64,000 nucleotides of DNA, taken from the IMG/VR virus record IMGVR_UViG_2974724611_000001, positions 12,650 through 76,649 of that record; one strand, written 5' to 3'. Position 1 is the stretch's first letter. Each line of letters opens with the position of its first letter. Below are positions 55,273 through 64,000 of this stretch, one piece after another. This DNA comes from Cinqassovirus ah1 (taxonomy: Duplodnaviria > Heunggongvirae > Uroviricota > Caudoviricetes > Straboviridae). Made by a program: the position numbers and the translations under genes. Under the pieces are notes generated by a model. That model worked only from the letters and a program-made list of their open reading frames with translations. It searched no databases and was not told where the DNA came from.

Positions 55273-55300
55273 AAGCCACCCGAAGGTGGCTTTTATTTTT
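55270..55300 (-). terminator. Bidirectional rho-independent terminator, UUCG tetraloop
   Basis: GCCACC-UUCG-GGUGGC, with U/A runs on both sides. Confidence 0.6.
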
Positions 55301-56744
55301 ACGCTTGTTCGTCGCTACGTGCGCGAGCTTCGTCAAACAGTGCTTTGTTGTAGCTGTGAGCACAAACACCGTCCATCAGATAAGTAACAAACTCGTTACT
55401 GTTCTCATACTGTGCGAATCGCGGGTCAAGAACGTTTACAGTCTTATATTGACCGTCGATCTTAACGAGACGCATACGACCAGCTTTGGAAGCTTTCCAT
55501 GCAGCGTCTTTTGGATTCTTACGAACACCACGCCATTTGCCATTTACGCGAATCGCAGAGCATTTGTAAGCCCACTTCTGAGTGTCGCGGTCGCATTTTT
55601 GCAGCAAGCCACCACCCATACCGAAAGCAACGTTTTCAACACTGAAACCCAGTTCTTTGATGAACTTCAAGCAAGCTTCGACATCCTTATCGGAACTCAG
55701 GCCGTCTCCTTGAATCACGCGGTAGCTACCATGCAGAACTTTATAACCTTTGCTGTTTACAGTGAAGCCAACGTTTTTCGCGATAGTCTCCAGTGCATAT
55801 CCGATATTGTCGAACATGTCGCCAGAGTCAGGACGAATCACGCAAGTACCGCCACGTGCCAAAATCTCTTTCTTGAATTCACCGGTAGTCAGACGATCAA
55901 CGGCAGATTTGTAGTCGATAGAGTCAGCAACTACAGCATAAACACCGTCACCCCATTGACGAATACTGTTCCAGAATGCTTCATCTTCTTGTTCAGGAGT
56001 CAGCATACCTTCATCACCATAACAAATGGTAGTGCTGTGCTCACGCGCTGGAATACTGATACCAACCGCGATATCATGAGCCAGATTATAGATATCTTGT
56101 GCCATAATCAGAGCTTCAACGGTATCGGTACCGATAAAGTTGATCAGGTGCGCCAGACCACCCAGTTTTGCCGCTTGTTCGCAAGTCGCGCCGCGAGCAC
56201 CGAAGTCGTGCAAGCGAGTTTTCAGAACGAAATCAAAGTCGGCACCGGTCAGATCTGAGGTTTCTTTCAGATACTTTTTCACCAGCTTCTTGATTTTGAA
56301 ACTCAGAGTGGCAACAGAACTCGGATACCAGTGACCACGCAACAGGAAAGTTTCCAGATGCCCACCAATGCTGAATTCAGGACCGAAAGTCTCAACAACC
56401 ATAGTTGCATTGCGACCGGGGATAACTTGTCCGTCTTTTACACCGTACATATTAACCGGCAGCTTACCACCACGTTCAGTTGCAATTTTCATCCACATGT
56501 CATAGGCGAATACATCGCGACCGAAATGTGATTTGTAAAGCATGTTAGCGCGAGTTACGTCAGCGACGGTAATGCCCTGCTCCAGGACACGCGAAACAAA
56601 GTGCAGACCCGATACCATCAACTTATCATCAATACGAGGTTCAGCATAGAAACTCGCGGCGTCAGTACCTTGTGGGAACTGCCATGGATGAGTGATTTTG
56701 TAAGAGTCGGTGGAAGTACACAGGTTAGATTTAAATACGTTCAT
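55299..56744 (-). CDS. nadV: Nicotinamide phosphoribosyltransferase (NAMPT/NadV)
   Basis: ~481 aa from MNVFKSN. The NAMPT family signature runs throughout (TDSYKITH, GHLETFLLRGHWYPS, FGARG, IRPDSGD, GGGLLQK). Confidence 0.88.
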   Translation of the reverse strand: MNVFKSNLCTSTDSYKITHPWQFPQGTDAASFYAEPRIDDKLMVSGLHFVSRVLEQGITVADVTRANMLYKSHFGRDVFAYDMWMKIATERGGKLPVNMYGVKDGQVIPGRNATMVVETFGPEFSIGGHLETFLLRGHWYPSSVATLSFKIKKLVKKYLKETSDLTGADFDFVLKTRLHDFGARGATCEQAAKLGGLAHLINFIGTDTVEALIMAQDIYNLAHDIAVGISIPAREHSTTICYGDEGMLTPEQEDEAFWNSIRQWGDGVYAVVADSIDYKSAVDRLTTGEFKKEILARGGTCVIRPDSGDMFDNIGYALETIAKNVGFTVNSKGYKVLHGSYRVIQGDGLSSDKDVEACLKFIKELGFSVENVAFGMGGGLLQKCDRDTQKWAYKCSAIRVNGKWRGVRKNPKDAAWKASKAGRMRLVKIDGQYKTVNVLDPRFAQYENSNEFVTYLMDGVCAHSYNKALFDEARARSDEQA

Positions 56745-56865
56745 TTTGAAGGCTCCCTTCATTGATTGTGGTTTGTTTGTGATTTCTTATCACAAAAAGA
56801 TTGTCTCATATCTTTAGACACAAAACAAGCTTTTTGTGAGGGGTATTTTCTACCCCGTCACGTTA

Positions 56866-57543
56866 TCAGAATACCAGTGCGATACCAGCAACAGCAGAGT
56901 TATCATAGCCAACACCGGTAGTTACAGTGTGGCGCAGTTTAACATAGGGCTGGAACAGCTCGCCAGTCAGAGTCATAGCGATTTCGTGTTCATTGGAAGT
57001 CGGAAGACCCAGAGAGAAATCGGTACGTTCATGTTGGGTTTTACGGGTAAAGTTATATCCTACAGTCATTTCGGGGTGAATTTCATAACTCACACCAGCT
57101 TTGATCTTGCTATAGTCTTGACCTTCGTTCATGAAGCTATAACCAGCGCCAGCGTAGGAATACAGTTTGGCGAACGGCATGTATTCAACGATGCCCTGGA
57201 AGTAAGTTTCATGATCGGTATTCACATCACCTTCATAGATGCCGTATTCAGCACTAGGAACAAAGGTAAAATCATCAGAGATCTGAATTGTCTTGCCCAG
57301 AGTACCGGCAGTGTGCTTGGTAGTGTCGTGTTTGACTTCCAGGAAGTAGGAGTCAGGCAGAGCAACGGAAGCACCGTATTCAGAAACATCGGTAGAGACG
57401 TTACGCTCTACATAGATCTTTTCAAATTGAACTTGAGCGGCAGCTTCGGTCAGATCGGAAGCTTGTGCTTGGGTACAGCCAAAAGATGCAGCAGCTACGG
57501 CCAAGCCAATGATTACACTGTGAATAAAGTTTTTGGACATCAA
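56866..57543 (-). CDS. Outer-membrane beta-barrel protein (porin/OmpW/KdgM-like)
   Basis: Signal peptide MSKNFIHSVIIGLAVAAASFGCTQAQA. Alternating amphipathic beta-strands. C-terminal aromatic residue (..GIALVF). Confidence 0.55.
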   Translation of the reverse strand: MMSKNFIHSVIIGLAVAAASFGCTQAQASDLTEAAAQVQFEKIYVERNVSTDVSEYGASVALPDSYFLEVKHDTTKHTAGTLGKTIQISDDFTFVPSAEYGIYEGDVNTDHETYFQGIVEYMPFAKLYSYAGAGYSFMNEGQDYSKIKAGVSYEIHPEMTVGYNFTRKTQHERTDFSLGLPTSNEHEIAMTLTGELFQPYVKLRHTVTTGVGYDNSAVAGIALVF

Positions 57544-57554
57544 GGTATTACCTC

Positions 57555-57773
57555 TTAGTTGATTGAGAATAAAGCAACAACAAGTATCAACATTATTATT
57601 AGGATCTTGTTGTCACCATGTTTACTTAACGTTTCCAGTATACGTCGCTCGATTGCAACTGTCAACAACTTTTTCGCGATTGCTAACGGTATAACAAGAA
57701 ACGTTAAGACTAGGAACTTATGTTGATTATACATTAGCTCCAGAAGATTGCAAACACTATCGTAAAAATCCAT
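57555..57773 (-). CDS. Small membrane protein
   Basis: 72 aa with two TM helices. Confidence 0.4.
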   Translation of the reverse strand: MDFYDSVCNLLELMYNQHKFLVLTFLVIPLAIAKKLLTVAIERRILETLSKHGDNKILIIMLILVVALFSIN

Positions 57774-57822: not shown

Positions 57823-58056
57823 TTACAGTAACTCCGTCATATAACGGCTATACGAGATTGTATAGTCAGAGCCAAATCCGGTGATATCTTCCCAGTCTTG
57901 ACCCGGGTCCACTTTTACAATAAACCCGTAACCGAGAAATGGAATTTCATGATTGGTTCCTAAACCGACAACGGTACATTTAAACTTTTGAACGTTGCCG
58001 AATATACCGGAGACGAGTTCAACTTCAACCCGATCTCCATTTTCAAACGGATACAT
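57823..58056 (-). CDS. Hypothetical protein
   Basis: ORF trimmed to MYPFENGDRV. Confidence 0.4.
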   Translation of the reverse strand: MYPFENGDRVEVELVSGIFGNVQKFKCTVVGLGTNHEIPFLGYGFIVKVDPGQDWEDITGFGSDYTISYSRYMTELL

Positions 58057-58282
58057 CGAATAGTCCTTGTTGTTTAGCTTTTTCAAAAAGCGGGTGATTG
58101 TCCGATATCGAGATATCAAGAGCTTTTATGATAAGACTAATGTCTTCCAATGTCAACTCTTTTTTCGTGATTTTATGGGTTTTCGGGATGCGAATAGATC
58201 CAGTCAGACTATTGTCACCACGATGATACCAGTCTTCTCGTTGCTCGATCAGTTCGTCTTGATGGAGTGCGTCCTGACTCAT
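58043..58282 (-). CDS. Hypothetical protein
   Basis: 79 aa. 4-nt overlap (ATGA) with the upstream nucleotidyltransferase gene. Confidence 0.5.
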   Translation of the reverse strand: MSQDALHQDELIEQREDWYHRGDNSLTGSIRIPKTHKITKKELTLEDISLIIKALDISISDNHPLFEKAKQQGLFDVSV

Positions 58283-59232
58283 TTGTTGATTTCCTCTACA
58301 TAAACATCATAAAGGAAATTATCCCAGAATTCCTTGTCCACGGACTCGCGCATACCGTTTTTCTTGGCAATAACGATTTCCGCTTCCACGTCATTCATGA
58401 GCTGTTCAAGATACGGATTAACTTCATCTACCAGATTACGATTTCCCAACTTAATGTCAAGAATAAATTCACGATGTTTCAACGGGAATTTCAGATCACC
58501 AGTCCGATAAATTTCAAGCAGTTGCTCGCCACCACGGACGGCATGAGAAAGTGCTTTCCAGTCCACACCGACTTCTTCTTTCGCCTTCTTAGCGCGATCA
58601 CCGTACTCTTCCCAGATCTTCGTGATCTGTTGTTCAAACTCAGTGAACTTGATTCCATAAAGATACTTGCGCCCCAGAACTTCATAGAAGCTCACCGGCT
58701 CGCCAGTTCGAGAGAGTTCACACCCAGGGAACGTGAATTCGTCGCTAGGAAGACGTCCAATAAAGCTGGACAGACGGTAGCCACGTTCGTCTTGTGGTAC
58801 TGCTTTGACTACTGCCATAACTCGTTCCAGCGCGGCCAAGCGTGTGCCCTTAACGCCGTACTTGGTAGCTTGCTTACGACAGTAACCCAAGAATGCATCC
58901 ATTTTTGTGGTATAGAACATCGAGCGATTTTCGTGGATATATTCCCAGTGCTTTGAAGTCTCCAGCAGTTGATTACTATGCAACATATCAATACACATAG
59001 TTTCGCCTTTGCTTGCGAGTCGCAAGAACTGGCGCAAGGACATCATTTCGGTATCGATATCATCAACGGTATTCTTGCCTTTGCCACCGGTCGATTCGTT
59101 GTAGACTTCTCGCCCACCCAGTACGATTTCTCTGGGAGTAGGGATAAAGATTCCTTTATAATCTCGATCCGAAGTCGGGGTACTCAGCCCGTACAGGTGC
59201 GAGCCGAATACAGTTTTCATCAAAGTTTTCAT
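58279..59232 (-). CDS. Pol-beta-superfamily nucleotidyltransferase (RlaP/YcgL-like minimal NTase with a C-terminal extension)
   Basis: 317 aa. N-terminal hGS-x9-SDxD motif: VFGSHLYGLSTPTSDRDYKGIFI. Confidence 0.55.
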   Translation of the reverse strand: MKTLMKTVFGSHLYGLSTPTSDRDYKGIFIPTPREIVLGGREVYNESTGGKGKNTVDDIDTEMMSLRQFLRLASKGETMCIDMLHSNQLLETSKHWEYIHENRSMFYTTKMDAFLGYCRKQATKYGVKGTRLAALERVMAVVKAVPQDERGYRLSSFIGRLPSDEFTFPGCELSRTGEPVSFYEVLGRKYLYGIKFTEFEQQITKIWEEYGDRAKKAKEEVGVDWKALSHAVRGGEQLLEIYRTGDLKFPLKHREFILDIKLGNRNLVDEVNPYLEQLMNDVEAEIVIAKKNGMRESVDKEFWDNFLYDVYVEEINK

Positions 59233-59588
59233 TCTGTTTCCTTAAAGAAATCAACACTCTTTTTAATTACACTTGAGCTTTCTTTGTAGTAATCTACCAC
59301 AAGTTCTTCGTCTCGTCCGAGTGCAAGCATGAATCGTTTTGCTTGACTAACTGACATTGGTCCAGTAGTTCTTCCCCAGCCAAGAAAAACGAAATCTTTC
59401 TCTTGCTCATGAATTTGAATCCCATATTTGAGCATATTCTTATTCACAACGGGGAGCTTATTCAAAAATGAATCGCGATCCAGATAGTTCATAATCTTAA
59501 CATAGATAATACGACACACGATTGAAGACAAAAACAAAACCAAAATAAAAATCGCGTATTCTTTGGCACCAATTTCGATAATGTTCAT
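59229..59588 (-). CDS. Membrane-anchored protein (N-terminal TM)
   Basis: 119 aa. TM helix YAIFILVLFLSSIVCRIIYV. 4-nt overlap with the nucleotidyltransferase gene. Confidence 0.5.
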   Translation of the reverse strand: MNIIEIGAKEYAIFILVLFLSSIVCRIIYVKIMNYLDRDSFLNKLPVVNKNMLKYGIQIHEQEKDFVFLGWGRTTGPMSVSQAKRFMLALGRDEELVVDYYKESSSVIKKSVDFFKETE

Positions 59589-59914
59589 TATTGCATTGCC
59601 TTCTGTTGATAGAGTTCAGCCAAGTTTTTGTTCAGTCGCTCGATTGCTTGTTCCAAAGTCTCAGCATTCGGATCATAGTTATCGGCAGTTGAATCGTAAT
59701 GTGATTTTGATTTACCATGAGAAACATCCCAATGAGTGGAAGTAGTCTCAGGACAACGAGTCACATACAGATTTTGATCTGATTTAGACCGTAGATAAAA
59801 CACTTTACACCCGGCCAGACCACTAGGCATTTGATATGCGTTCGTGGTCTCAGTTGTTACAGTATCGCATCCAATCAGAGCGAATGCAAGAGTAATTACG
59901 GCAAACTTTTTCAT
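59588..59914 (-). CDS. Lipoprotein
   Basis: MKKFAVITLAFALIGC (lipobox). Confidence 0.55.
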   Translation of the reverse strand: MKKFAVITLAFALIGCDTVTTETTNAYQMPSGLAGCKVFYLRSKSDQNLYVTRCPETTSTHWDVSHGKSKSHYDSTADNYDPNAETLEQAIERLNKNLAELYQQKAMQ

Positions 59915-60032
59915 ATTTCAAGCCGCTCCAGTACAGGTAAAATTGATTTGAAGACCATGATCATAAAGTCGTTGCTTCCGACCATGGCCCAGATCACAAA
60001 GTTAAGAACAATCAGTAACACCCAGATTGCAT

Positions 60033-60287
60033 TTAATCCTTTCGCCACCATACGTCTTCGTCTCTCATGTCACTTGATGTATTGGATCTTATCACAACAG
60101 GACGAGGAGTTACAAGTGGATTTTTCATTATTTTTGTTTCTGTGCTTGCGTAAACAGGGATATATTTCTGGCTGAAATCTTGACCCTGTAGCATTAGCTC
60201 AAAGTTACGCAAAACGCTCTCCTTAGAGGGCGCACTAATGTCCTGATACCTACTTGACATTAAACTGCCTGTACAGATACTTGCCAA
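60033..60287 (-). CDS. Hypothetical protein
   Basis: 84-aa ORF. Confidence 0.35.
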   Translation of the reverse strand: MASICTGSLMSSRYQDISAPSKESVLRNFELMLQGQDFSQKYIPVYASTETKIMKNPLVTPRPVVIRSNTSSDMRDEDVWWRKD

Positions 60288-60627
60288 AGATCAGTTTATG
60301 AACGTCGTTGGATTTCTCTGCCTGTTGCAGGATATCGTAAAATTCAGGAATAGTCAATACTCTGGTTTGTTTTCCGTCTGAACTAACGAAATCATATCCG
60401 TGAGTGCTATCAGTCGGCACTTTTGGAATTCCGTAGTGGTCATAAAGGCGAATAGTGATTCCTTTCTTTTGGAAAGCATCAACAATTTCATTGAAATGTT
60501 GTTTGATCCAAATACGTCGATTGGTTGCTTTTTCGCTACGACGCTTTTTGATCAAGTCTGAGATCCAGATAGCAAAAGCGATAATTGCAACAAAAATAAT
60601 TGTGATCATCGCGGCAACATAAGCCAT
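60250..60627 (-). CDS. Membrane protein
   Basis: 125 aa with an N-terminal TM helix (AAMITIIFVAIIAFAIWI). Confidence 0.5.
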   Translation of the reverse strand: MAYVAAMITIIFVAIIAFAIWISDLIKKRRSEKATNRRIWIKQHFNEIVDAFQKKGITIRLYDHYGIPKVPTDSTHGYDFVSSDGKQTRVLTIPEFYDILQQAEKSNDVHKLIFGKYLYRQFNVK

Positions 60628-60631
60628 TTTA

Positions 60632-60961
60632 TTACCTCACAGTGAATAGATCAGACGTAACCGGTTTATCGCTCAAAGGAACGGTGTGTTCTTCGAACTT
60701 TTCTCCGTATTCACATTTTCGCCAGAACAGCATTACCTCAGACGGATATAGATCTCGGCTGATTCTTTCTCCGTTGGTAAACACGAAACGGACTTTGTGT
60801 ACCTTTTTGAGCTGTACTCCATGTTTCATAAGATTGTGTTGGATGATATCCCAACTCTTTCTGATACGACGATAGGAGACAAACTCAACGATAGCACACA
60901 TTAACAATATTGCGGCAAGAATAACTGCCGCAACGATTCCCATGATATCGATTGTAGTCAT
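60632..60961 (-). CDS. Membrane protein
   Basis: 109 aa with an N-terminal TM helix (IVAAVILAAILLMCAIV). Confidence 0.5.
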   Translation of the reverse strand: MTTIDIMGIVAAVILAAILLMCAIVEFVSYRRIRKSWDIIQHNLMKHGVQLKKVHKVRFVFTNGERISRDLYPSEVMLFWRKCEYGEKFEEHTVPLSDKPVTSDLFTVR

Positions 60962-61314
60962 TATACCTCTAGTTTGTAACAGTCAATAAACGCCTGTGCA
61001 TTCTTATTAACAAAGTCCACGATTTTGTCACAAGCCAACTCACGGGACTTTTGTTTCCGCAGAACCGGAAACTTAACACCAGATTTCCACTTACAATCAC
61101 CACAAAGAGATTCGAACTTGGTTTCACCGGCGTGAAGCATGAAATGCGCCCAACGATTGTTGAAAAACTCAAGATCAGAACAACCGATCTTAGCACCAAC
61201 CATGATCACTTCCATGATTTCTTCGCCCAGAGATTTACGTGATCTAACTCGAACATACTCTACCAGACGCGGGTCAATCTTGGATTTTACTTGTTCTACC
61301 AGAGCTTGATTCAT
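60961..61314 (-). CDS. Hypothetical protein
   Basis: Start at MNQALVEQ behind a cassette. Confidence 0.5.
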   Translation of the reverse strand: MNQALVEQVKSKIDPRLVEYVRVRSRKSLGEEIMEVIMVGAKIGCSDLEFFNNRWAHFMLHAGETKFESLCGDCKWKSGVKFPVLRKQKSRELACDKIVDFVNKNAQAFIDCYKLEV

Positions 61315-61385
61315 GATGTTTTCCTCAGAGTGATTGCTTTGTTTCAATGAGGCCATTATTACATGGCCTCCGATTTATGTCAAAC
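61312..61385 (-). promoter_or_regulatory. Early promoter–leader cassette with a hairpin
   Basis: Minus strand: taagtTTGACAtaaatcGGAGGCCATgtaataATGGCCTCATTGAAACAAAGCAATCACTCTGAGGAAAACATCATG. Confidence 0.5.
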
Positions 61386-61688
61386 TTATTTTTGAACTTT
61401 TTTCTGTTGCTTCTGGATTTCTTTCCAGACTTGCTTTTGCAGCTTTTCGCGGCAGCCGTTCTTGTTCATCAGATAATCGTTGGTGATCTTCTGTTGAGCG
61501 TGGAACCAGTGGGCAACAGCTTCACTAAGAATAACACGTTGTTCGGCTTCTGGGAGTTTCTTGAACTTCTCAATACCGAAGTATTTGATACGAGATACAA
61601 CACCGTTTGTCATACGCTCCAGAGCATCACGATTCACATTAAACTGCTTTGCGATTGCGTCGAATTGTGCTTGAATTGCCATGTCCAT
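61386..61688 (-). CDS. Hypothetical protein
   Basis: 100 aa. Start at MDMAIQ behind a cassette. Confidence 0.5.
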   Translation of the reverse strand: MDMAIQAQFDAIAKQFNVNRDALERMTNGVVSRIKYFGIEKFKKLPEAEQRVILSEAVAHWFHAQQKITNDYLMNKNGCREKLQKQVWKEIQKQQKKVQK

Positions 61689-61771
61689 GATGTTTTCCTC
61701 AGTGTTTTGTTTTGCGACGAGTCGCGTTGTTTCGATGTGGACATCATAACAGGCCGATCCTTGCTGTCAAC
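61686..61771 (-). promoter_or_regulatory. Early promoter–leader cassette
   Basis: GTTGAC (61771-61766), 17 nt, TATGAT (61748-61743), GTCCACATCGAAAC...GCGACgagTCGC...GAGGAAAACATCATG. Confidence 0.5.
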
Positions 61772-61802: not shown

Positions 61803-63977
61803 TTATAGCTGTTCGGTGAGTTTCAGATAGTCTTTCAACTCTTTGCCTTTCAGCTTCTTACACGCTGAATACTCGCGGTACTCTGTGCGCTTGGCTGGGA
61901 TATAGACACGAACGTATCCGTCATCCTCGTTGCCACCTTCGATTTTGATCCCAGAAGGGAAATCGACTTTCTTGGGTTCCACGTACTCAAGACGTCCGTT
62001 CTTCAATCTCGGCAATTCGCCGTCTCGGAAAGAATACACGATATAATCTTGAACACCGGAACGCTTGGATTCGGTAAGTAGTTCACTGAACTTCATTGTT
62101 TTACTTTCTTCCAATGTTCCCTTCATTTTCTCTTGATATGCTTTGAACTTGTCGTATCGATTCAGTTCAACCTCATAGCATTTTAGAATTCGCAGTTGTT
62201 TTTCTGGACTAAACACTGCCCATTCTGGACTGATTACGTTTGATTTTGATGTTGCATTAGGCACACCAGCAGAACGATAATCCTTGATAGGCTGACCCAG
62301 AATAGATTCCATTTCGAAAACATACCCACGGGTACCAGCTTGACGTCCATAACCGGAGTTACCAACGTATTGCAAGATCTTATCAATCTTGTTACTAAAG
62401 TAAATCCCGTCACCAAGCATACGTCCAACAACAGATGAATCCTTGCTAGGAATAATCTTGAAGCCGTAACGCAAGATCATGTTAGCAGCGATACCACCGG
62501 TTCCGTGGAAACATGGAACAACTTGTTCAAGTTTACCAGCGTCGATCTGTTCTTGCATGAACTTTTTGAATTCACCGTCTGGGAAACTCACGGTCATACT
62601 ACGCAGAATTAGAGGATAAACGTTACCGTGTTTACCAGCGTAATAGTTATCGATCAAATGCTTACCAATCAGGTATTTCTGTTCGTTGGTAATATTGTCG
62701 TCAACTGCTTTAACTTTCGGAACAACACCGTCACCTTTCGCAGCTTCGGCTTCCACACGCTTGATATAATCGGTGAACTTCTCATTCTTGCCGAGTTTGA
62801 TCTTCGCTTGTTTCACCAACTCAGTTGGGTTAATTTCGTTAAACTCAAACATCTGCTTAACACGACGACGATCCAACTTGTCGAACAAGTTAATTGGACC
62901 CTCAAGAACTTGTCCGTAAACAAACTTGATTGCAGCCAATTGATCTCGCACTTTACCACGATAATATGTTTCCAAGTTATCGAAGAAAATGTCCGTGATA
63001 GCAGGATCAGTTTCTACGGCGTCAGTCATAATGTCTACCAATGCTTGTTGCATACCTTGCTTATGATCACGAACACTGATAGATTTACCGTTCTCGGCGT
63101 TAAAGAACTTAAATCCGTTCTTAACTTCAAGCTTCATGAATTCTACCGCGTCTTCTCCATCAAAATCATAATATTTCAGGAAAGCGGAGTAAAGATTATC
63201 ATACTTACTGTTTTTATTGATGCCAAGATCGTAAATGTCCAGATCTTTGCCTAGTGCTCTGTATCCACCAAGGAAAATCTTTTGTCTGTATTCGGGCATT
63301 GTACCACGATTCGACATAAAGAAAATTCGAGTCTTAGCACCCGCGTTTGGAGTTCCCTTGATTTTATTGATAACATATTCAGCACCAGCAGCAACGTCGC
63401 TTTCACCATGAATGAAGGCAGCGGACATCAAAGCGTTTTCTTGCTCTTCCCAAGAAGAACCCACGCTGGTATCTTTTGTGATATATGCATCCAATGCGTC
63501 TCTAACTCGCTGCTTCATGCTTGGTACCATGTTATAAGCCATAGCATTAACACGATTCGGGAAAATAACACCAAGCTCAAGAGCACGAATAACACACTTA
63601 GCAATCATGGAAACATCTGCCGCGTCCATGTTTTCTAGTGGATATTCAACTGAACTCTTATAAGAGTCTTTTACTCGCTTGATTGTATCAACGAAATCCG
63701 CGTCATCGAGTGCGTACAGTTTAGTCCAATGATCGTTGATGAACGAGAAATCGGCGTTGGCTTTATTCGCGGGAGTCAACAGAAACTCAAGTCCATGACG
63801 ACACATCGAAACTTTGTTATTTGCGTTCCAGGAATCCCATTTATAAGGAGGATATACTCGCTTGTATCTTTCCAGCACGTAACTCGTTACTGTATCCCAA
63901 CCAATCATATCAGCAAATGAGCCGTCAAACAACAGAGATTTGAAAGCATCCGATAGATAGCTAGAATAGGACATCAT
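61803..63977 (-). CDS. Large protein with a C-terminal PARP-like (H-Y-E) ADP-ribosyltransferase domain; Alt-like candidate injected effector
   Basis: 724 aa. The C-terminal ~130 aa carries VPCFHGTGGIAANMILRYGF (H-G-T), GDGIYFSNKIDKILQY (matching PARP GKGIYFAD) and YVFEMES (catalytic Glu). The 5' end may extend past the window. Confidence 0.55.
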   Translation of the reverse strand: MMSYSSYLSDAFKSLLFDGSFADMIGWDTVTSYVLERYKRVYPPYKWDSWNANNKVSMCRHGLEFLLTPANKANADFSFINDHWTKLYALDDADFVDTIKRVKDSYKSSVEYPLENMDAADVSMIAKCVIRALELGVIFPNRVNAMAYNMVPSMKQRVRDALDAYITKDTSVGSSWEEQENALMSAAFIHGESDVAAGAEYVINKIKGTPNAGAKTRIFFMSNRGTMPEYRQKIFLGGYRALGKDLDIYDLGINKNSKYDNLYSAFLKYYDFDGEDAVEFMKLEVKNGFKFFNAENGKSISVRDHKQGMQQALVDIMTDAVETDPAITDIFFDNLETYYRGKVRDQLAAIKFVYGQVLEGPINLFDKLDRRRVKQMFEFNEINPTELVKQAKIKLGKNEKFTDYIKRVEAEAAKGDGVVPKVKAVDDNITNEQKYLIGKHLIDNYYAGKHGNVYPLILRSMTVSFPDGEFKKFMQEQIDAGKLEQVVPCFHGTGGIAANMILRYGFKIIPSKDSSVVGRMLGDGIYFSNKIDKILQYVGNSGYGRQAGTRGYVFEMESILGQPIKDYRSAGVPNATSKSNVISPEWAVFSPEKQLRILKCYEVELNRYDKFKAYQEKMKGTLEESKTMKFSELLTESKRSGVQDYIVYSFRDGELPRLKNGRLEYVEPKKVDFPSGIKIEGGNEDDGYVRVYIPAKRTEYREYSACKKLKGKELKDYLKLTEQL

Positions 63978-64000
63978 ATAGACATAAGCAGTTGAAATTA

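Follow-up and report, generated by a model that had tools for sequence, protein, structure and literature searches.

An NrdC.11-type nucleotidyltransferase among lineage-specific accessory genes in Aeromonas phage Ah1

The 64,000-nucleotide stretch of DNA analysed here (the window) comes from Aeromonas phage Ah1, a T4-like phage. It contains five overlapping genes for, in order of reading, a lipoprotein, a transmembrane (TM) protein, a Pol-beta nucleotidyltransferase (NTase) and two small proteins. Are these a dedicated machine, such as the nucleotide-signalling or anti-signalling module suggested in a first-pass annotation, or is the NTase a known enzyme with incidental neighbours? The region is not a dedicated five-gene machine. 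We consider it instead, with a probability of roughly 0.68, to be a stretch of one long transcription unit of early genes, located in the plastic region between nrdC and tk, with an NTase that would serve in NrdC.11-type RNA repair.

Genes, junctions and transcription signals

The five ORFs, all on the minus strand, were confirmed in position and correspond to RefSeq gp120 (59588..59914), gp119 (59229..59588), gp118 (58279..59232), gp117 (58043..58282) and gp116 (57823..58056). The overlaps of 1-14 nt first noted for them held good when the junctions were read: 1 nt between gp120 and gp119 (TAATG), 4 nt (ATGA) at both gp119/gp118 and gp118/gp117, and 14 nt between gp117 and gp116. Each gene has its own Shine-Dalgarno sequence, and selection on all five is purifying (dN/dS 0.04-0.34 against Aeh1 and phiAS5).

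Two further minus-strand ORFs, neither annotated in Ah1, flank the five. The first (orf46, 59911..60051) encodes a 46-aa TM protein (KD19 2.37; Aeh1p134 in Aeh1), is joined to gp120 by an ATGA overlap and to gp121 by one of 19 nt, and has dN/dS values of 0.19 and 0.13 against Aeh1 and phiAS5. The second (orf72, 57555..57773), downstream of gp116, encodes a 72-aa TM protein (Aeh1p128 in Aeh1; dN/dS 0.07 and 0.25 in the same comparisons). Beyond it lies gp115 (56866..57543, minus strand), which encodes a secreted 225-aa candidate outer-membrane beta-barrel (phrog_21698) whose signal peptide and C-terminal ...GIALVF were read directly from the sequence; this is the final gene ahead of a hairpin (56790-56839) and NadV. 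On the upstream side, gp121, gp122 (TM), gp123 (TM), gp124 and gp125 (60033..61688, minus strand) belong to the same collinear block and are probably co-transcribed with the five. Scanning this stretch for Rfam families, tRNAs and repeats gave nothing relevant.

Do the overlaps set gp120-gp116 apart? In the minus-strand run of 162 genes from gp001 to gp162, overlapping junctions make up 57 of 161 (35%). Some 2.5 runs of four overlapping junctions would be expected there by chance, and two runs of at least four were seen, namely gp120-gp116 (four) and one of five. The tight spacing is thus the packing style of the whole genome. Nor does the chain end at gp120: the junction gaps among gp121-gp125 are -11, +4, -1 and +29 nt, and since the conserved orf46 fills the upstream gap, the overlapped chain (no gap above 4 nt) extends from gp124 to gp116, about ten genes. 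The sole strong terminator and promoters are upstream of gp125 and gp124. An inverted repeat at 61798-61775 (minus strand) forms an intrinsic terminator-like hairpin that marks the upstream boundary of the transcription unit and is directly followed by a sigma-70-like promoter (61770-61743, minus strand; 11/12 matches). A second such promoter (TTGACA-17-AATAAT, 61355..61383, minus strand; 11/12 matches) lies upstream of gp124 and is wholly intergenic if gp124 starts at 61314. The next hairpin comes only after gp115, so that about 13 genes stand between the bracketing hairpins. The idea of a distinct five-gene unit therefore did not survive. It is the entire 5-kb block, beyond the five genes alone, that is collinear in Aeh1 and phiAS5.

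gp118 is a long-form RlaP protein

Among the families named in the first-pass annotation for a profile check, RlaP (PF10127) came first, and it is this one that the 317-aa gp118 matches, scoring 50.8 bits where the cutoff is 23 (E 2.4e-13) in an alignment that spans residues 2-129 only (model positions 19-143 of 249). Pfam gave nothing else for this protein, and PF10127 is present in all of its best 120 database homologues. The PHROG match is phrog_388 (E 3.9e-107), and T4-type NrdC.11 is 48% identical over 99% of the length (residues 1-313). As in T4, the gene lies between nrdC and tk (nrdC gp037 ... gp118 ... tk gp151). By these comparisons gp118 is the T4 NrdC.11 orthologue and belongs to a long subfamily of RlaP; the gene is known and already annotated, its RefSeq note reading NrdC.11. 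The family, with 1546 phage records and >7,000 cluster representatives, is near-universal in T4-like phages of many hosts.

The catalytic site is intact. The GS-x9-SDxD motif originally spotted is present as G10-S11-x9-S21-D22-R23-D24. Thirty homologues show no variation at the residues of the Pol-beta signature hG[GS]-x9-13-Dh[DE]h (G10, S11, D22 and D24), at D82, which supplies the third carboxylate, or at many basic residues of the C-terminal domain. In the AF2 model (pLDDT 88) the NTase domain comes first, and after it a helical domain with an additional beta-hairpin (167-191). The model matches other phage RlaP-type NTases over its full length (TM ~0.74), and aminoglycoside NTases are among its structural neighbours. 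A Foldseek search of the PDB returned only generic NTase matches (TM <0.4). Sequence and profile queries of the same database, made with gp118, the homologue alignment and the bacterial long and short RlaPs, gave no relevant match and so established a sequence link to neither PfRlaP nor HalB. The dN/dS of gp118 is 0.04 against Aeh1 and phiAS5. It is the only one of the five genes to be widely conserved, being kept in nine diverse phages.

Conservation of the neighbouring genes

What of the other four genes? The 108-aa gp120 begins with MKKFAVITLAFALIGC, a signal peptide whose lipobox LIGC, read directly from the sequence, conforms to [LVI][ASTVI][GAS]C and is followed by Asp at +2 (MKKFAVITLAFALIGC-D). 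Lipidation is predicted, and the lipobox bears out the original reading as a lipoprotein. Under the +2 rule of E. coli, Asp at this position would place gp120 in the inner rather than the outer membrane. NCBIfam gives a weak lipoprotein N-terminal match, the best PHROG is phrog_902 (E 7e-18), a family without known function, and there is a weak match to the Cor superinfection-exclusion PHROG (E 2.8e-4). The 62 phage records of the gp120 family come from Saclayvirus, CR3-like and 350-kb jumbo phages, among others; no NTase was found near its genes in unrelated phages.

The 119-aa gp119 does have the N-terminal TM helix ascribed to it, a single one (KD19 = 2.58 at residue 12). Its family comprises 13 phage records, all from Aeromonas, and evolves fast, identity falling to 26% already in phiAS5. 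It is a weak paralogue of gp123 at HMM level only; BLASTP of gp119 against gp122 and gp123 gave no alignment. The gene has been lost from three of the related loci (L021, L023 and L024), and gp119 and gp116 are both missing where NTase identity is 70-74%. The 77-aa cytoplasmic gp116 (phrog_21343; dN/dS 0.18) has homologues only in Aeh1 and phiAS5 and is missing from contigs at 74%, 70% and 54% NTase identity.

Of the four neighbours, the 79-aa cytoplasmic gp117 (phrog_19448) alone keeps its place right behind the NTase outside the genus. Profile matches to its family (15 clusters in 5.8 billion) occur in loci L005 and L020-L024, always immediately after the PF10127 gene, and it also follows the NTase in contexts L025-L027. 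Its range is confined to large Aeromonas phages: when the family profile was run against all neighbours the matches were restricted to Aeromonas-phage lineages, and a profile search of the nrdC.11 neighbours of T4, KP27, 44RR, ZZ1, PM2, VR7 and phi-pp2 did not detect it. A phmmer --max comparison of the four neighbours with the ORFs around nrdC.11 in nine diverse phages likewise found no homology.

The links of lipoprotein, TM protein and 77-aa protein to the NTase are thus confined to the Aeh1/phiAS5 clade. The five genes do not co-occur across divergent genomes, with the exception of gp117 and its adjacency within Aeromonas phages. Outside the Cinqassovirus/Chrysonvirus clade the NTase alone persists, and the operon structure is accordingly not a conserved one. 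A TM protein had been considered as a constant predecessor of the NTase, and this was rejected: 5 or 6 of 10 phage lineages have a TM protein upstream of the NTase, these proteins belong to unrelated families, about half of the small ORFs in such regions code for membrane proteins, and TM-like immediate neighbours are found at 18 of 69 bacterial loci against some 23 expected. In sum, gp118 has no conserved linkage to membrane genes. Its gene belongs to a family already known, lies in a genome already annotated and is set among clade-specific accessory genes. The flanking genes (a predicted inner-membrane lipoprotein, a single-pass TM protein and two small cytoplasmic proteins) are lineage-specific accessories, and gp117 alone may have a genuine partnership with the NTase.

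RNA-repair context

What might an NrdC.11-type enzyme do? RlaP enzymes were shown in 2025 to extend RNA 3'-OH ends by one or two NMPs (PMC12776372). The reaction is Mn2+-dependent, does not take place on DNA and has been demonstrated for the short Pseudomonas enzymes only; Pseudomonas RlaP prefers cleaved-tRNA mimics and is inactive on DNA or protein (PMC12776372). With PfRlaP, aminoacylation was rescued once the extended ends had been ligated. T4 NrdC.11 was placed in the same Pfam family, in SSN cluster 5 (PMC12776372), and in jumbo phages the distribution of RlaP mirrors that of RNA ligases (PMC7824862).

In bacteria the long form is found beside short RlaP in operons with RtcB, RtcA, Hen1 and Ro60. 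A Nitrosospira operon (L045) has the order Ro60 - RtcB - RtcA - NrdC.11-type NTase - short RlaP - Hen1, its NTase showing 36% full-length identity (E 3e-69), and another locus (L098) has RtcB - long NTase - short RlaP. RtcB is close to the long NTase in only 5 of 77 sampled bacterial loci (~6%). This setting gives a testable context for the function of T4 NrdC.11. Since the long and short forms stand in tandem, their activities are probably not identical, which suggests different jobs for the two.

Among phages, Rheinheimera phage Barba19A has the order CCA-adding enzyme - hydrolase - RlaP, and at locus L024 the NrdC.11-type gene is again near a CCA-adding enzyme. Ah1 itself carries Rnl1, Rnl2, PNKP and a CCA-adding enzyme (Pfam-confirmed) along with 23 tRNAs; the CCA enzyme is gp207 and separate from gp118. 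The Ah1 NTase lies 80-115 kb from rnlA, rnlB and pseT, without an operon-level link. An association with RNA ligation and repair is thus seen family-wide and, in Ah1, genome-wide, but not at the level of the Ah1 operon.

By analogy with the characterized enzymes, the best-supported reading is that phage gp118 would act on RNA 3'-OH ends in tRNA repair. The first-pass annotation had offered RNA modification as one possible function; its remark that function could not be deduced from sequence now looks too pessimistic as far as the NTase is concerned. We infer the substrate and in vivo role of the phage enzyme along the following lines. Host anticodon nucleases or other ribotoxins would cleave tRNA and trim nucleotides off the new 3' end. 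The phage PNK (PseT) would heal the tRNA ends, and NrdC.11 would extend the 3'-OH by one or two NMPs, without a template, through a three-carboxylate two-metal centre (D22, D24, D82). Rnl1 or Rnl2 would then seal the break, so that at least a fraction of functional tRNA is restored and translation kept going. A T4 deletion of nrdC.11-mobD.3 remains viable under laboratory conditions (PMC9825161), from which it follows that any role of NrdC.11 would be conditional.

Alternative readings

Could the NTase and its lipoprotein and TM neighbours nevertheless be a signalling or anti-signalling module, aimed for example at CBASS, Thoeris or Pycsar? The NTase would make, cap or sponge a signal and the membrane proteins would be its effector or sensor; a module of this sort would have been a phage counter-defence of a new type. 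The genes are adjacent with start/stop overlaps in Ah1, Aeh1 and phiAS5, and about half of the sampled phage lineages have some membrane protein encoded right before nrdC.11. We nonetheless find both the module and these roles for its parts very improbable, because the linkage vanishes outside one clade, gp119 is already lost at 70-74% NTase identity, the lipoprotein family occurs without the NTase in unrelated phages, bacterial loci show no excess of membrane neighbours and the overlaps are the genomic norm. Moreover, Ah1 already has an Acb1 anti-CBASS gene elsewhere, and profile searches point the same way: a PADLOC scan with E values allowed up to 0.1 matched none of the five, Pfam and PADLOC gave no CD-NTase or SMODS match for any of them, and an NCBIfam scan of the five brought nothing meaningful beyond the weak gp120 match. 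The supposed minimal NTase paired with membrane proteins has turned out to be of a known family without membrane linkage. Just as hard to credit is a HalB-like gp118 making oligo-deoxyadenylate or another nucleic-acid decoy that keeps the DNA-gated channel of a host Hailong-type system closed, as a counter-defence. The two proteins are 14% identical, with no sequence or profile link between the RlaP type and HalB, and HalB is a tetramer of 217-aa subunits with Tyr-primed synthesis, whereas the 317 aa of gp118 include an additional beta-hairpin and additional helices. Bacterial NrdC.11-type genes are in RtcB/RtcA/Hen1 operons and not beside channels, and the near-universal presence of the family in T4-like phages of many hosts also argues against this idea. 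More broadly, a long NrdC.11-type RlaP that is not redundant with the short form and, with gp117 (in Aeromonas phages) or in HalB-like fashion, is making a nucleic-acid product that disarms host immunity (a decoy oligonucleotide for the Hailong channel, say, or an antidote to nucleotide-excising anticodon nucleases) is a long shot; were it true, one of the T4-family genes of unknown function that are most widespread would encode a counter-defence enzyme.

Two other readings stay closer to the preferred one of NrdC.11-type RNA repair. gp118 and gp117 may form a two-protein unit, with gp117 as a specificity, regulatory or inhibitory subunit, an arrangement that fits a role in RNA repair and that we hold to be possible though unlikely. 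The gp117 family comes right after the PF10127 gene even where all other neighbours have been replaced, this order holds in AS-sw and L024-L027 (NTase 52-54% identical), and the gp117 start overlaps or abuts the NTase stop codon. Yet a start/stop-overlapped pair may be kept passively, the 15 clusters all come from one phage group and represent only about four independent lineages, and gp117 is undetectable both at nrdC.11 in the seven phages from T4 to phi-pp2 listed above and beside the bacterial relatives. Somewhat more doubtful is that NrdC.11-type enzymes act on RNA or another substrate but do not serve to mend anticodon loops trimmed by nucleases. They might instead tail host or phage RNAs at the 3' end to mark them for decay or protection, repair tRNA 3' ends together with the CCA enzyme, or, in the manner of ANT/KNTase enzymes, nucleotidylate something other than RNA. 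Throughout its C-terminal half the long form is unlike short RlaP, their tandem suggests a distinct task, the gene is near a CCA-adding enzyme in Barba19A and L024, and the structural neighbours include aminoglycoside NTases; against this, RtcB, RtcA, Hen1 and Ro60 are RNA-end healing, sealing or quality-control factors, and the invariant basic residues fit a nucleic-acid substrate.

Comparison with known systems

Like the Cor/Llp-type lipoproteins, gp120 is a small phage lipoprotein with a scattered, moron-like distribution, although its match to Cor may rest largely on the signal peptide. HalB (PDB 9dbh), the poly-dA synthase that works with the HalA ion channel, has no sequence or profile match to gp118, which is not recognizable by sequence as a HalB-type NTase. 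The conserved two-gene pairing of NTase and channel is likewise missing, the TM neighbour not being conserved among phages, and the 119-aa single-pass gp119 differs from the tetrameric HalA channel as described in a review (a comparison with the description, not with a HalA sequence). The CD-NTases/SMODS of CBASS and the MNT-type minimal NTases have the Pol-beta fold and the GS...DxD motif in common with gp118. The CCA-adding nucleotidyltransferase (PF01743) also adds nucleotides to RNA 3' ends without a template but is of a different Pol-beta family.

The likeness to PfRlaP and PaRlaP extends to PF10127, a Pol-beta core with three acidic residues and a tie to RNA ligases. It may also extend to the domain layout: in RlaP the helical C-terminal domain after the NTase domain forms a cleft, and the AF2 model of gp118 has the two domains in that order. 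gp118 is about 60 residues longer, and its BLAST alignment with short RlaP covers about 120 residues, only the N-terminal 120-130 residues being common to the two. Unlike Pseudomonas RlaP, which is encoded in rtcB-rlaP-rtcA operons, the phage protein has no ligase link at operon level. T4-type loci differ from that of Ah1 in their flanks, where nrdC.10 comes after the NTase gene and MobD or a multi-TM protein of ~150 aa before it, but T4 NrdC.11 and gp118 share 48% identity, the catalytic motif, the nrdC-tk position and the early-gene orientation.

Nucleotidyltransferase family

The Pol-beta nucleotidyltransferase (NTase) gp118 (317 aa; 58279-59232, minus strand) is the known T4 NrdC.11 / RlaP enzyme. 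The RlaP profile (PF10127), proposed in the first-pass annotation as one to check, scores 50.8 bits against a Pfam cutoff of 23. The protein also matches phrog_388 (E 3.9e-107) and is 48% identical to T4-type NrdC.11 across 99% of its length. Homologs occur in 1546 phage records, all 120 of the best matches in a large protein database carry PF10127, and an exhaustive profile search returned 7257 cluster representatives at E ≤1e-3 and 1586 at E ≤1e-30, the best of them full-length. The GS-x9-SDxD motif reads G10-S11-x9-S21-D22-R23-D24, and its residues, like a third carboxylate, D82, do not vary across 30 homologs. In a confident AlphaFold2 model (pLDDT 88) the NTase domain leads into a helical domain that carries an inserted beta-hairpin, and the whole model aligns structurally with other phage RlaP-type NTases (TM ~0.74). 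The Aeh1 ortholog carries the name nrdC.11 / tk.-11, and Ah1 gp118 itself is already annotated in RefSeq. The literature has listed nrdC.11 since 2006 among conserved T4-like ORFs, noting its NTase domain (PMC1524935), and T4 tolerates its deletion under laboratory conditions (PMC9825161). What interest is left lies in what the long RlaP subfamily does and in a possible small partner.

Gene packing and transcription unit

The 2.8-kb region around gp118 and its four closest neighbors is 100% identical to Ah1 (NC_055733.1; Straboviridae, Cinqassovirus) and 82-97% identical to the avDM12, Aeh1, PX29 and AsFcp phages (record position minus 12649 gives window position). All five minus-strand ORFs are present, with RefSeq names gp120 (59588-59914), gp119 (59229-59588), gp118, gp117 (79 aa; 58043-58282) and gp116 (77 aa; 57823-58056), as are their overlapping junctions (TAATG, 1 nt; ATGA, 4 nt, twice; and one 14-nt overlap). 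Every one of the starts is preceded by a separate Shine-Dalgarno sequence. The descriptions of gp120 as a lipoprotein and of gp119 as an N-terminal TM protein also hold: the former opens with a lipobox-bearing signal peptide (MKKFAVITLAFALIGC-D), and the latter has a single hydrophobic helix at its N-terminus. Values of dN/dS against Aeh1 and phiAS5 (0.04-0.34) indicate purifying selection on all five, the NTase being the most constrained and gp119 the quickest to change.

The five genes are not a unit of their own, as first proposed, and their packing does not exceed chance. Overlaps are common across the whole minus-strand run in which they lie, an uninterrupted 162 genes with overlap at 57 of 161 junctions (35%). 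Two runs of at least four consecutive overlaps are seen (this one with four junctions, the other with five), and about 2.5 runs of four are expected by chance. Upstream of gp120, what looks like a 118-nt gap is occupied by a 46-aa TM ORF (59911-60051, minus strand; dN/dS 0.13-0.19) that overlaps gp120 (ATGA) and gp121 (19 nt), so that from gp124 to gp116 no intergenic gap exceeds 4 nt. Upstream of gp125 lie a strong terminator-like hairpin and then a promoter, a second promoter (11/12 matches) lies upstream of gp124, and the next hairpin is downstream of gp115; these boundaries enclose a unit of some 13 genes, with the five in the middle. To cut those five out of a densely packed early-gene block is arbitrary.

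The Ah1 RefSeq record lacks both this 46-aa ORF and a second small TM ORF (57555-57773, minus strand, 72 aa). Since both are annotated in Aeh1 and kept in Aeh1 and phiAS5 (dN/dS 0.07-0.25), both are probably genuine genes that the Ah1 annotation overlooked. A 20-nt direct repeat (61312-61331 and 61686-61705) involves the gp125 RBS/start region and an internal ATG of gp124; this repeat and the 117-aa length of the Aeh1 ortholog suggest that the true gp124 start is 61314, not 61356, in which case the promoter at 61355-61383 would be wholly intergenic.

Two further features of the surroundings were recorded. From its sequence, gp115 (56866-57543, minus strand; 225 aa, N-terminal signal peptide, C-terminal ...GIALVF) resembles an outer-membrane beta-barrel encoded by the phage; Pfam, NCBIfam and PADLOC gave no match, and the gene is kept between nrdC.11 and NadV in Aeh1, phiAS5 and a metagenomic contig (L021). 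The 1212-aa gp126 (61803-64000 and beyond, minus strand) weakly matches the PARP catalytic domain (E 1e-5, just under the gathering score), with a DraG ADP-ribosylglycohydrolase upstream and NadV (NAMPT; 55299-56762) a few kb downstream, an NAD / ADP-ribose theme.

Conservation of the neighbors

Synteny in relatives had been proposed as a check. Aeh1 and phiAS5 are collinear across the whole gp125-NadV block, not across the five genes specifically. In nine other phages (T4-like Tequatrovirus, 44RR, AS-sw, KP27, ZZ1, phi-pp2, Barba19A, PM2 and VR7), phmmer searches of the local Ah1 proteins against ORFs within 3 kb of nrdC.11 found nothing but the NTase. Metagenomic contigs at 74% or 70% NTase identity keep the lipoprotein and a gp117-like gene and lack gp119 and gp116; one with a 54% identical NTase keeps the NTase and gp117-like gene alone. 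gp119 is found in 13 phage records, all from Aeromonas, and evolves very fast (26% identity in phiAS5, against 82% for the NTase). The lipoprotein family (phrog_902) occurs in 62 records, including Saclayvirus, CR3-like and 350-kb jumbo phages, in none of which is an NTase nearby; gp120 weakly matches the Cor superinfection-exclusion PHROG. The membrane genes are clade-specific accessory genes, and a tentative suggestion is that they act at the envelope, for instance in superinfection exclusion.

Single N-terminal TM helices are also present in gp122 and gp123 (60250-60627 and 60632-60961, minus strand), all three such small proteins lying within 2 kb; weak paralogy between gp119 and gp123 shows at the HMM level only. 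A protein of about 150 aa with a strongly hydrophobic (TM) region and the N-terminus MIINxNSWH... lies directly upstream of nrdC.11 in Tevenvirinae and Acinetobacter T4-like phages (L003:649-1095, L011:2552-3004, L007:2161-2640); this recurrent membrane neighbor and gp119 are non-homologous.

The gp117 family is the more constant companion. A weak-similarity chain, confirmed by profile, places it as the next gene after the NTase in phiAS5, AS-sw and three metagenomic lineages, including lineages in which all other neighbors differ. It comprises 15 clusters among 5.8 billion, is directly 3' of a PF10127 gene in every context examined, and is not detectable by profile in T4 and other genera. The two proteins may truly be partners, or a pair whose start and stop codons abut may simply have been kept passively.

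Signalling, defence and RNA repair

The pairing with membrane proteins had suggested a nucleotide-signalling or anti-signalling module. Hailong was considered because its NTase, HalB, pairs with a membrane channel (review PMC13434031). A TM protein does lie directly upstream of nrdC.11 in 5 or 6 of 10 lineages; the families are unrelated, and about half of the small ORFs in the same Ah1 region are TM proteins anyway. Around bacterial relatives such proteins are not enriched, with TM-like immediate neighbors at 18 of 69 loci and about 23 expected (18% background). gp118 matches neither CD-NTase nor SMODS families, PADLOC models gave no hit to any of the five proteins, and sequence and profile searches (PDB) found no link between RlaP-type proteins and HalB. 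With that link missing, the pairing not conserved and a bacterial context of RNA repair, the Hailong-like reading is very unlikely; the resemblance to HalB is best read as a common NTase-plus-helical-domain fold.

Defence-related genes were seen elsewhere. Ah1 gp320 (L014:2886-3380; record 102886-103380, outside the window), labelled 'RNA ligase / gp57B', matches Pfam Acb1 (E 1.9e-35), so the phage already has a known anti-CBASS gene. The contig with the 74% identical NTase has a Tad2-like gene (L021:3626-3904; PF11195, anti-Thoeris sponge family) directly upstream of NadV, a position at which Ah1 has no counterpart.

Scanning one genome per species gave full-length relatives of gp118 in 115 bacterial and archaeal loci (30-49% identity over residues 1-315). 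Clustering of flanking ORFs revealed few recurrent neighbors, RtcB among them (5 of 77 loci). In Nitrosospira (L045:555-9277) the order is Ro60-like - RtcB - RtcA - NrdC.11-type NTase - short canonical RlaP - Hen1 - AAA ATPase, the NrdC.11-type protein being 36% identical to gp118 over its full length (E 3e-69); a second RNA-repair operon (L098:1770-4895) reads RtcB - long NTase - short RlaP. Such tandems imply that the two RlaP subfamilies are non-redundant. Rheinheimera phage Barba19A has a CCA-adding enzyme and a hydrolase, then its RlaP gene. Ah1 itself encodes Pfam-confirmed Rnl1, Rnl2, PNKP and CCA-adding enzyme, plus 23 tRNAs; these repair genes lie 80-115 kb from gp118 and are likewise dispersed in T4.

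Two ORFs deserve mention here. Ah1 gp150 (L013:37452-38888, adjoining tk, outside the window), labelled 'RNA-binding protein', has DUF7788, DUF2828 and VWA domains and is possibly a Ro60-like factor in RNA quality control; if so, it would enlarge the phage RNA-repair repertoire. A 761-aa Desulfatitalea ORF (L074:3660-5945) carries a C-terminal NrdC.11-type NTase behind an N-terminal region of about 447 aa without a Pfam match, and similar ORFs apparently occur in other Desulfatitalea/Desulfobacteraceae loci (e.g. L059, L064); the fusion may be genuine, or mechanical ORF calling may have produced it.

RlaP takes its name from association with RNA ligases, and in jumbo phages its distribution mirrors theirs (PMC7824862). 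Two Pseudomonas RlaPs put one or two NMPs on RNA 3'-OH ends, favor mimics of cleaved tRNA and do not act on DNA or protein; with them, tRNA repaired after losing a nucleotide is aminoacylated better. The same work assigned T4 NrdC.11 to the family (December 2025 preprint, PMC12776372). Family biochemistry and operon context, carried over to the long subfamily by analogy, point to a similar role: gp118 most likely extends damaged RNA 3' ends by a nucleotide or two, and phage RNA ligases would then ligate them. Its alignment with short RlaP is limited to the N-terminal ~120 residues, so the NrdC.11-type proteins form a distinct long subfamily, working beside the characterized Pseudomonas-type short form and not replacing it.
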